A stretch of DNA of 10,341 nucleotides, taken from positions 1-10,341 of the forward strand of contig JBKJLC010000280.1 of the NCBI GenBank assembly GCA_046597055.1. The letters are read 5' to 3'. The position numbers were made by a program, and so were the translations under genes. Within the stretch, counting starts at the first letter, position 1, and the number at the start of each line of letters is the position of its first letter. The notes under the pieces were generated by a model. That model did not search any database, was not told the DNA's origin, and saw nothing but the letters and a program-made list of their open reading frames with translations. Origin of the DNA: Kofleriaceae bacterium (GTDB lineage: Bacteria; Myxococcota_A; Polyangia; Haliangiales; Haliangiaceae). This document shows positions 605 to 1,685 of this stretch, in pieces.

Positions 605-632
605 GCTGTCCGGTCTCCGGACAGCTGTCCGG
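605..632. promoter_or_regulatory. Candidate upstream activator (enhancer) site for a sigma-54 enhancer-binding protein
   Basis: GCTGTCCGG-tct-CCGGACAGC (605-625) is a perfect 9-bp-arm inverted repeat containing TGT-N11-ACA. It overlaps the perfect 16-bp palindrome CCGGACAGCTGTCCGG (617-632) and lies ~90-115 bp upstream of the predicted sigma-54 start site. Confidence 0.6.
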
Positions 633-692
633 CCGGCGGACGCCGGTGGCCGGGACCCGGACGGCGTCGACGCCGATCCGCGGGCTTGCGCG

Positions 693-708
693 CGGCACGC
701 GGCTTGCG
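693..708 (+). promoter_or_regulatory. Sigma-54 (RpoN) -24/-12 promoter
   Basis: CGGCACG-CGGC-TTGCG matches the TGGCACG-N4-TTGC consensus with exact GG-N10-GC spacing (GG 694-695, GC 706-707). The predicted +1 near 719 falls just before the SD AAAGGAG (726-732) and ATG 742. Confidence 0.75.
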
Positions 709-741
709 ATGGGTCTGCTCACTCGAAAGGAGCGAGCTCAG

Positions 742-1041
742 ATGAACGCAAGCAATGTCGGAACTGTCAGTGGCAATCGACCCAAGATGTTCAAGGTGCT
801 GTGTCCGGTGGAACGCAAGGATGGAGGGACCTTCTGGATGCGGGTGGGATCGGCGTTCCCCAACAAGGACCAGTCGATCAACCTCTATCTCGACGCGCTG
901 CCGCTCGGTCACAACAAGCTGCAGATCCGGGAGATGGAGGACGAGGACTTCAATCGCGGGGGCAAGAAGCGCGATGGCGAGGCGCCGCCGAGCGCGAGCG
1001 CGGGGGCCGGCCCCGGCGGCACCGACGACCTCCCGTTCTGA
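742..1041 (+). CDS. Small (99 aa) hypothetical protein, putative single-stranded DNA-binding protein with SSB-like acidic C-terminal tip
   Basis: Strong SD AAAGGAG at 726-732 before ATG 742; the ORF-track extension from 166 is low-complexity and crosses the promoter. Beta-rich core FKVLCPVERKDGGTFWMRVGSAFPNKDQSINLYLDALP, then a Gly/Ala/Pro linker, ending DDLPF. The CDS is well supported; the function is inferred. Confidence 0.85.
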   Translation: MNASNVGTVSGNRPKMFKVLCPVERKDGGTFWMRVGSAFPNKDQSINLYLDALPLGHNKLQIREMEDEDFNRGGKKRDGEAPPSASAGAGPGGTDDLPF

Positions 1042-1086
1042 CCGGACCCTGGAACCAGCAAGGAACTGACGATGAAGGAGCGTGTC

Positions 1087-1521
1087 ATGGAGACAGGTGA
1101 GAGCGTGCAGAGTGGCAAGGGCGCGGCGCGGTGGCGGCGGGCGATGGCGTCGGCGGCGATGGCGGCCATGGTGGCGATGGCCGGGGTGACCTGGCTGTCG
1201 CCGCAGGTCGCGGCGGCGGCACCCAGGGCGCTGCCCGGGGTGGTGGCGACGCGGAGCACGGCCGAGCCACCGGCGGCGCGGGCGGGCAAGAAGGAGGTGG
1301 CCGGCAAGCTCAACCTCAACACGGCGACCGCCGATCAGCTGATGTTGCTGCCGGGGGTGGGCCCGTCGAAGGCGGAGCGGGTGGTGGCGTGGCGCGGGAA
1401 GCACGGGCCGTTCAAGCGGACCGCTGACCTGCGCAAGGTGAAGGGGTTCGGCTACAAGACACTCAAGAAGCTCGAGCCGTACCTGGACGTGAAGGGCGAC
1501 TCGACCCTGGCGGCCCGGTAG
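1087..1521 (+). CDS. comEA: ComEA-family helix-hairpin-helix DNA-binding/uptake protein (exported)
   Basis: C-terminal LNLNTATADQLMLLPGVGPSKAERVVAWR..GPFK..DLRKVKGFG is the tandem HhH of ComEA. The N-terminus is signal-peptide-like (RWRR, hydrophobic stretch, VAAAA). SD AAGGAG at 1075-1080 precedes ATG 1087; ATG 1072 is an alternative start. Confidence 0.88.
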   Translation: METGESVQSGKGAARWRRAMASAAMAAMVAMAGVTWLSPQVAAAAPRALPGVVATRSTAEPPAARAGKKEVAGKLNLNTATADQLMLLPGVGPSKAERVVAWRGKHGPFKRTADLRKVKGFGYKTLKKLEPYLDVKGDSTLAAR

Positions 1522-1548
1522 CGGCCGCGGCGGGCACCGTCGACCCGT

Positions 1549-1685
1549 CGCTGGCGGCGACGGCGGTGGCCACGGATCTCCCGGACGTGCCCGGGCTCGC
1601 GGAACCGGCGTCGCCCGAATCGACGTCGCCTGCGCGAGCCTCGGCCGCCCGGCCGGCTCCGTGGCCACCGCCGTCGCCGCCAGCG
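1549..1685. repeat. 137-bp element with perfect 28-bp terminal inverted repeats (MITE-like or long extragenic hairpin)
   Basis: CGCTGGCGGCGACGGCGGTGGCCACGGA (1549-1576) is the exact reverse complement of 1658-1685. Internal stems form at 1594-1601/1633-1640 and 1609-1613/1621-1625. CGT flanks both ends (1546-1548, 1686-1688). Confidence 0.8.

Follow-up and report, generated by a model that had tools for sequence, protein, structure and literature searches.

A predicted sigma-54-type regulon of myxobacteria that unites genes for DNA capture and recombination

The X-comEA locus

The window, by which we mean the whole 10,341-nucleotide stretch of DNA analysed here, carries a gene for a small protein that we call X, followed on the same strand by comEA (Table 1). 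Its nearest named relatives are Kofleriaceae, and this group of myxobacteria is the most likely source of the DNA. An earlier note on this DNA had described a near-consensus sigma-54 promoter, a strong Shine-Dalgarno sequence before an open reading frame ending in DDLPF, and a downstream comEA with its own Shine-Dalgarno sequence, and all of these are present, the promoter in the form GG-N10-GC. Gene X is also coding by a codon model. Translation of comEA could begin at ATG 1072, preceded by AAGGA at 1060-1064, or at ATG 1087, preceded by AAGGAG at 1075-1080. The product scores 57.9 bits against TIGR00426, above the cut-off of 53.1, through a C-terminal HhH DNA-binding domain that also matches HHH_3 (PF12836) at E 7e-20; against the full-length model TIGR01259 it scores 61.9, under that model's cut-off of 152. 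An N-terminal hydrophobic stretch of Ala, Met and Val can be read by eye at about residues 25-50. The inverted repeats beyond comEA are a possible transcript end for X-comEA. The reading of the region upstream of the promoter had to be revised: what had been taken for a single palindrome at 605-632 is one complete box together with half of a second, and a third box, with one mismatch, had been overlooked.

Table 1. Features of the X-comEA locus, with the gene for a candidate activator elsewhere in the source genome (G000). Offsets are counted from the first base of the -24/-12 motif.
Feature	Position	Strand	Offset	Remarks
Box 1, TGTCCG-N5-CGGACA	607-623		-86	perfect; predicted activator site
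Box 2	626-642		-67	perfect; predicted activator site
Box 3	647-663		-46	1 mismatch; predicted activator site
IHF-site-like conserved element	676-688	+		TTG at end; 4 bp upstream of promoter motif
Sigma-54 -24/-12 motif, CGGCACGCGGCTTGCG	693-708	+		GG 694-695, GC 706-707, 10 nt between
Shine-Dalgarno sequence of gene X, AAAGGAG	726-732	+
Gene X	742-1041	+		99-aa ORF, C-terminal end DDLPF
comEA	1072-1521	+		HhH domain at C-terminus; alternative start 1087
GC-rich inverted repeats 3' of comEA	1522-1685	+		putative transcript end
FHA-AAA-HTH protein P0203	G000:C15:2138-3529			candidate activator; own promoter has box and -24/-12 motif

The remainder of the window is unexceptional. No gene was called in positions 1-600, which hold a perfect 12-bp inverted repeat (17-28/61-72). 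Between 1731 and 9897 lie ordinary genes for an M20 peptidase, a Ser/Thr kinase, a beta-lactamase-family serine hydrolase, Hsp33, a stand-alone LytTR protein, a V4R-like protein and a carboxyl transferase. In relatives, a Ser/Thr kinase gene is often the downstream neighbor of comEA.

X was detected in 36 of 41 genomes (the source genome included), mostly as one match each, and comEA lies downstream on the same strand in all 25 loci fetched. Among 80 named GTDB loci, which overlap the 41-genome set and whose relatives are not independent, comEA stands 36-870 nt from X in 74, while two are truncated and four unlinked; the conserved linkage that the earlier note proposed to look for is supported. 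Linked records include Haliangium, Nannocystineae, Anaeromyxobacteraceae and Archangium titles. In a sample of the phylum, 49 of 301 genomes had X, and 43 of these belonged to the same class. In 15 class-level loci from this sample comEA follows X in 14 and the -24/-12 pattern is present in 12, and the box in these further loci is different; in the five loci fetched from outside the class, comEA was never beside X. No regulator gene is a conserved neighbor of X-comEA in the loci compared. Two loci from another family (L340 and L347) have an upstream repeat of the TGTCC-N2/3-GGACA type before X, a drifted operator.

The promoter and the genes that share it

How might X and comEA be controlled? 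Transcription is predicted to start near position 719. The boxes are 17-bp gapped palindromes, YGTCCG-N5-CGGACR, and the positions of 200 such boxes, from loci of the genus and its wider relatives, peak at -46, -57, -67, -77 and -87, with -46 the best conserved (47 of the 200 lie exactly there). Phasing strength is 0.83 at a period of 10.3 bp versus 0.27 at 9 and 0.28 at 12. Such helical phasing is expected of an activator that loops to sigma-54. The element just upstream of the promoter is, in the window, a poor match to the IHF consensus, which we take to be WATCAR-N4-TTR, but an exact one in AT-richer relatives (L287, L323, L326 and L330). With rpoN encoded in the source genome, the -24/-12 motif conserved and the predicted activator boxes helically phased, the sigma-54/enhancer architecture first proposed for this locus is upheld. 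The box and the -24/-12 motif are kept upstream of X in all 17 genus loci, this one included, and the composite pattern gives 68 matches in seven relatives versus none for a reversed-pattern control.

Scanning G000 for boxes with a -24/-12 motif returned 15 matches by a mismatch rule and 10 by weight matrices; the matrices were trained without this locus, and the window nevertheless received the top score. The genes behind these promoters include a recA on contig C26, comM, radC, a gene for an FHA-domain enhancer-binding protein (FHA-EBP), two Uma2 genes and RAYT-like genes. Promoter conservation was counted over the best 30 loci per family, plus second recA genes fetched by hand. Within the genus, box and -24/-12 motif precede the second recA in 13 of 14 scorable loci listed, comM in 12 of 12, radC in 13 of 15, FHA-EBP in 7 of 13 scorable and the housekeeping recA in 0 of 13. 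Over all loci listed, the corresponding figures are 57/78 for X, 19/27 for the second recA, 17/29 for comM, 16/30 for radC, 8/26 for FHA-EBP and 0/30 for the housekeeping recA. The 56 pattern loci from seven relatives again comprise X, the second recA, comM, radC and the EBP, alongside multicopy genes of one genome (G016), Uma2 genes and others. A control element is shared by comEA, comM, radC and a recA, as in a competence regulon, and in many distant relatives comM adjoins the second recA.

Other families have a degenerate or a different box. Among nine more distant genomes, several radC, comM and second recA genes are again preceded by -24/-12 motifs, and the boxes are mostly degenerate, so an extension of the regulon to M. 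xanthus is plausible only.

Other genes carry the composite promoter as well. In G016, more than 20 near-identical copies (for example L178 and L189-L201) drive a multicopy gene of about 430 codons, presumably DUF222/HNH-like although it has no Pfam match at 1e-4; the pattern suggests that the promoter was copied by a selfish element. Two small unnamed gene families that stand behind the composite promoter in several genomes, one represented by G000:C150:26832-27230 (L030), L182 and L188 and the other by G000:C162:46643 (L029), L213 and L224, are candidate further members of the regulon.

What, then, of the uptake machinery? G000 does encode the remaining components that the earlier proposal presupposed: comEC, two dprA genes, a comF-like gene (below cut-off) and pilQ. 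It also has a canonical ssb, separate from X, on contig C212, whose product ends in DDDIPF. The expectation that uptake genes would carry the same promoter signature was borne out for comM, and the signature was found on radC and the second recA as well; it failed in G000 for comEC, both dprA genes, comF and the pilM-Q operon, and no composite stands before ssb. Nor are comEC, comF, dprA or pilus genes among the 56 pattern loci from the seven relatives.

Comparison with known regulons shows both likeness and difference. According to the accessible text of two papers, the competence genes comEA, comM and radC are regulated together in Legionella (PMC12378983) and in gamma-proteobacteria (PMC1635313), and ssb also occurs in known competence regulons (PMC1635313, PMC12378983). 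In the Sxy(TfoX)/CRP-S regulon of Haemophilus, Vibrio and E. coli, one class of palindromic site precedes comE, comM, radC and an ssb-type gene, and that regulon, like the present one, was found by phylogenetic footprinting (PMC1635313). CRP-S promoters use sigma-70 and CRP, whereas those described here would use sigma-54 with phased enhancer boxes; CRP-S also includes comF, dprA, rec2/comEC and pil (PMC1635313), whereas the present set has none of these but does have the second recA. The Legionella RocC/RocR set of comEA, comEC, comM, radC plus comF has the comEA/comM/radC core in common, but its control is post-transcriptional repression by a small RNA (PMC12378983) rather than sigma-54 activation.

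The absence of comEC, dprA, comF and pilM-Q from the promoter set, unlike most known competence regulons, counts against a competence regulon, as do the many composite promoters that stand before Uma2 genes, RAYT-like genes and further genes that are multicopy or unrelated. Both observations would suit a LexA-independent regulon for DNA damage or replication stress, in which comEA merely rides along and mobile-type genes have borrowed the promoter. The two recA genes bear on this directly. All 39 housekeeping recA genes form one clade, and GTTCAG, which we take to be the myxobacterial LexA-box consensus, lies upstream of 24 of these versus only 2 of 30 second recA genes, which places the latter outside a LexA regulon; lexA carries a GTTCAG-type motif too. 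A damage regulon would have to accommodate this separate box on lexA and the housekeeping recA, the lack of any uvr, recN, ruv, imu or lexA gene among the G000 composite matches and the 56 loci of the seven relatives, and the presence of comEA, comM and radC, a competence triad. M. xanthus also has two recA genes, one with a LexA box and the other, recA1 (MXAN_1441), without one, induced late by UV and required to integrate electroporated DNA (accessible text of PMC7029660). RecA1 is LexA-independent (PMC12288472, PMC9705874), and UV and mitomycin C both raise its level (PMC7029660; PMC12288472), as would suit a damage response. The accessible text of PMC7029660 names no regulator, no sigma-54 promoter and no link to comEA or comM, and the main texts of PMC12288472 and PMC9705874 mention neither comEA, radC nor competence. 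We infer that the second recA is the ortholog of recA1 of M. xanthus, a species outside our trees. Weighing both sides, we regard a damage regulon as quite improbable.

The promoter could instead serve predation, with ComEA capturing prey DNA as food while the cytoplasmic proteins guard the chromosome during nucleotide salvage. Myxobacteria are predators (PMC8538405), and the same argument has been made for the CRP-S regulon (PMC1635313), as far as the accessible parts of these sources go. A dedicated RecA and ComM are under the same promoter, however, and no nucleoside-salvage gene lies directly downstream of a composite promoter in G000 or at the 56 loci of the seven relatives. Because recombination genes share the promoter, feeding alone fits less well than transformation, and we hold it to be very improbable. 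Natural transformation of M. xanthus is the subject of a title cited in PMC8538405.

On the evidence of these conserved patterns, a sigma-54-type regulon that unites genes for DNA capture and recombination is real, with each of its regulatory steps a prediction. We favor, and consider probable, a reading in which X and comEA are a single operon within a competence and recombination regulon that depends on sigma-54.

Which protein would bind the boxes? The candidate P0203, an FHA-EBP, has an FHA domain, an AAA+ domain with GAFTGA and an HTH-like C-terminus; HTH_50 matches all four of its orthologs scanned, but not P0203 itself at E 0.001. The 27 FHA-EBP orthologs form one clade (SH-aLRT 99 in a quick tree) and have in common a conserved recognition-helix motif that 12 G000 paralogs do not share. 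Since, of 13 orthologs outside the genus, only 1 has boxes before its gene, and since G000 has 87 sigma-54 activator-domain matches, FHA-EBP is unproven as the activator. We give somewhat less than an even chance to the proposal that it is the activator, with positive feedback at its own promoter gated by Ser/Thr phosphorylation. In G016 the candidate gene appears as two overlapping pieces (C37:65848-67163), through a frameshift or an assembly error.

Protein X

X had been described as SSB-like. The comparison holds for its acidic D-x-PF tail, found in 49-52 of 52 close homologs and 72 of 108 wider homologs, and fails for the sequence as a whole, with the canonical SSB family (PF00436) matching 0 of 108 family members. 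Like SsbB/YwpH and the OB-fold SSB proteins, X is small, ends in this tail and is co-regulated with uptake genes; unlike them, it has a predicted four-strand core of about 50 residues and natural tandem duplicates. In the AlphaFold model this beta core (residues 17-64, pLDDT 80-90) and a short helix are followed by a disordered linker and the tail. K18, W32, N41, D43, S45, N47, R63 and the terminal PF are near-invariant, and the core is charge-neutral, with 9 K/R and 9 D/E. The predicted homodimer scores 0.41 against a mark of 0.42.

The family is large, with 1688 clusters at 50% identity (E<=0.001), and viral proteins make up most of its two highest-ranking Atlas clusters. Scans of Pfam, NCBIfam, PDB sequences and PHROGs gave nothing usable (one weak PHROGs row, E 0.027). 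Foldseek returned no PDB match at E<=0.001 for either the X monomer or a natural tandem homolog. The best VIA matches were to unrelated beta proteins (Z 3.1, rmsd 3.7 and 59 aligned residues for X; Z 6.1, rmsd 3.8 and 103 aligned for the tandem homolog, from a model with pLDDT 60), and those in BFVD were unnamed or uncharacterised phage proteins. We had ourselves guessed at a fold like that of PC4, Whirly or Drc, to which the fold searches lent no support. Tandem duplications of the domain occur in P0076, P0095 and P0134, and P0095 is predicted to form an eight-stranded beta unit (pLDDT 60). The nearest named Atlas cluster is DUF736 (PF05284), at 0.78, which is under the reliable range. PF05284 matches 0 of 108 family members, and DUF736 members were found in 0 of 301 genomes, a search in which the controls were likewise silent. 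DUF736 resembles X in being a small protein and comes from conjugative elements, being an ICE backbone gene (accessible text of PMC8627217).

Homologs of X recur beside genes of DNA transfer. In a handful of contexts chosen from the search matches, rather than surveyed, X homologs lie directly after comM (L355/L363), at the end of conjugation clusters that we take to be trb-like (L362, L364), beside a replication-relaxation gene of relaxase type carried by a Myxococcus plasmid, and behind the antirestriction gene of a phage. Two further loci, L360 (G190:C8) and L361 (G294:C1), each have four dispersed copies of a 62-aa tail-less homolog over about 19 kb, among lipoprotein-like genes.

The SSB-like tail and these contexts suggest that X is a non-canonical ssDNA factor, and given the ssDNA-type contexts of its homologs it likely works like an SSB accessory while standing outside the SSB family by sequence. 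We see an even balance of probability that X itself coats or hands over the imported strand. With the regulon otherwise as proposed, X might instead be an adaptor, a mimic of the SSB tail that recruits or sequesters SSB partners or nucleases without binding ssDNA. The near-universal tail in close homologs, a core that is not basic and the failure to match any Pfam family or PDB sequence would all suit an adaptor. Against it stand the conserved residues of exposed type, K18, W32, R34 and R63, and the many plasmid, ICE and phage homologs that lack the tail yet occur in ssDNA-transfer contexts, which indicates that the core has a role of its own. We judge an adaptor role somewhat unlikely.

Boxes throughout the genome and a model for the regulon

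The box is not confined to promoters. G000 has 310 exact copies of the full 17-mer versus 4 for a control, and 401 of the core GTCCG-N5-CGGAC versus 13-61 with other spacers; the box is the most over-represented gapped palindrome of this genome (z 85). Genes contain most of the core sites (324 of 401, 81%), which use all three frames and are spread evenly over gene length. Synonymous shuffling reduces the 324 coding sites to 84-110, and control spacers lie below their own shuffled values. Of the peptide contexts able to encode the box, 161 of 411 (39%) and 96 of 258 (37%) actually use it, versus 14 of 323 (4%) and 4 of 202 (2%) for controls. Each of 17 genus genomes holds 106-541 copies of the 17-mer (controls 3-18); outside the genus, genomes of two other genera hold 160 and 57 copies, and the 22 that remain hold 0-15. 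A REP-type extragenic repeat is ruled out by the 81% of sites that are coding. A second over-represented gapped palindrome of G000, TCACA-N8-TGTGA, has 56 copies versus about 1 expected.

Could the scatter be the primary function, the box serving a factor for the nucleoid or for uptake specificity that acts across the genus, as has been proposed for HIP1 or uptake sequences, with the promoter arrays secondary and FHA-EBP merely a target? The coding sites in all three frames, the peptide contexts and the copy number per genus genome all speak for such a factor. The density, 1 box per about 27 kb, speaks against it, being far under that of DNA uptake sequences (DUS) or HIP1. Phased promoter arrays are moreover kept in genera without the scatter. 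DUS of Neisseria and Pasteurellaceae, and cyanobacterial HIP1 (accessible text of PMC5861425), resemble the box in being lineage-restricted and over-represented genome-wide inside coding sequence; the box differs from them as a gapped 6+5+6 palindrome that doubles as a phased promoter element, and for HIP1 the same source reports no evidence of a gene-regulatory role. Compared with a regional pattern of the Noc, SlmA or MatP kind, boxes in G000 are mildly overdispersed (p 0.0015); spacing is even in G041, among the matches listed, which cover half the genome, and uneven on G019:C1. Of five isolated intragenic boxes compared between species, two aligned and one was scorable and kept. We consider a primary nucleoid or uptake factor improbable. 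Many genomes with only 0-15 boxes still keep boxes at promoters, and from this conservation of promoter arrays where scatter is absent the promoter role is wider and probably older than the scatter. The scatter would be a lineage-specific addition; whether it consists of decoys, a self-mark, sites of a nucleoid factor or a product of biased drive, the data cannot settle.

Some boxes stand in unusual surroundings. A 550-bp intergenic gap at G000:C39:44912-45200 (L038) has six or more boxes beside a cluster of DnaA-box-like 9-mers; it is ruled out as oriC, since dnaA lies on C23, where it has DnaA-box clusters to itself and boxes are absent. Boxes also lie between istA and istB genes at G000:C45:21873-21918 and C219:8662, elements that we take to be IS21-like.

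How would the regulon work? An enhancer-binding activator would occupy two or three phased boxes and, probably helped by IHF bending, open the -24/-12 promoters of X-comEA, the second recA, comM and radC together. ComEA would draw DNA into the periplasm, the separately controlled ComEC, ComF, DprA and pilus machinery would import one strand, X would coat it or pass it on, and RecA1 with ComM and RadC would integrate it. The scattered boxes may likewise be bound by this activator and could determine the threshold at which it switches, a step we think unlikely. A bolder version, to which we give little credence, has myxobacterial competence run by a self-activating, phosphothreonine-gated sigma-54 EBP whose operator has reached hundreds of intragenic sites; the boxes would be a genome-wide self-mark through which the chromosome, or incoming kin DNA with such boxes, titrates or triggers it, X would belong to a new non-OB ssDNA-binding family drawn from conjugative elements and phages, RecA1 would be the dedicated transformation recombinase, and selfish nuclease and transposase genes would have copied the promoter so as to be active during competence.

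In the openly accessible main-text literature searched, we found no description of the regulon, the box or protein X, and no case in which sigma-54 with an enhancer protein directly runs a competence regulon. X adds an unnamed protein family without a matching solved fold that recurs in ssDNA-transfer contexts, and an operator spread through coding sequence would be a new link between gene regulation and genome-wide repeats. Why do myxobacteria retain both recA genes, and how is the LexA-independent copy controlled? The regulon offers a testable answer, and overexpression of FHA-EBP might let hard-to-transform myxobacteria take up DNA.
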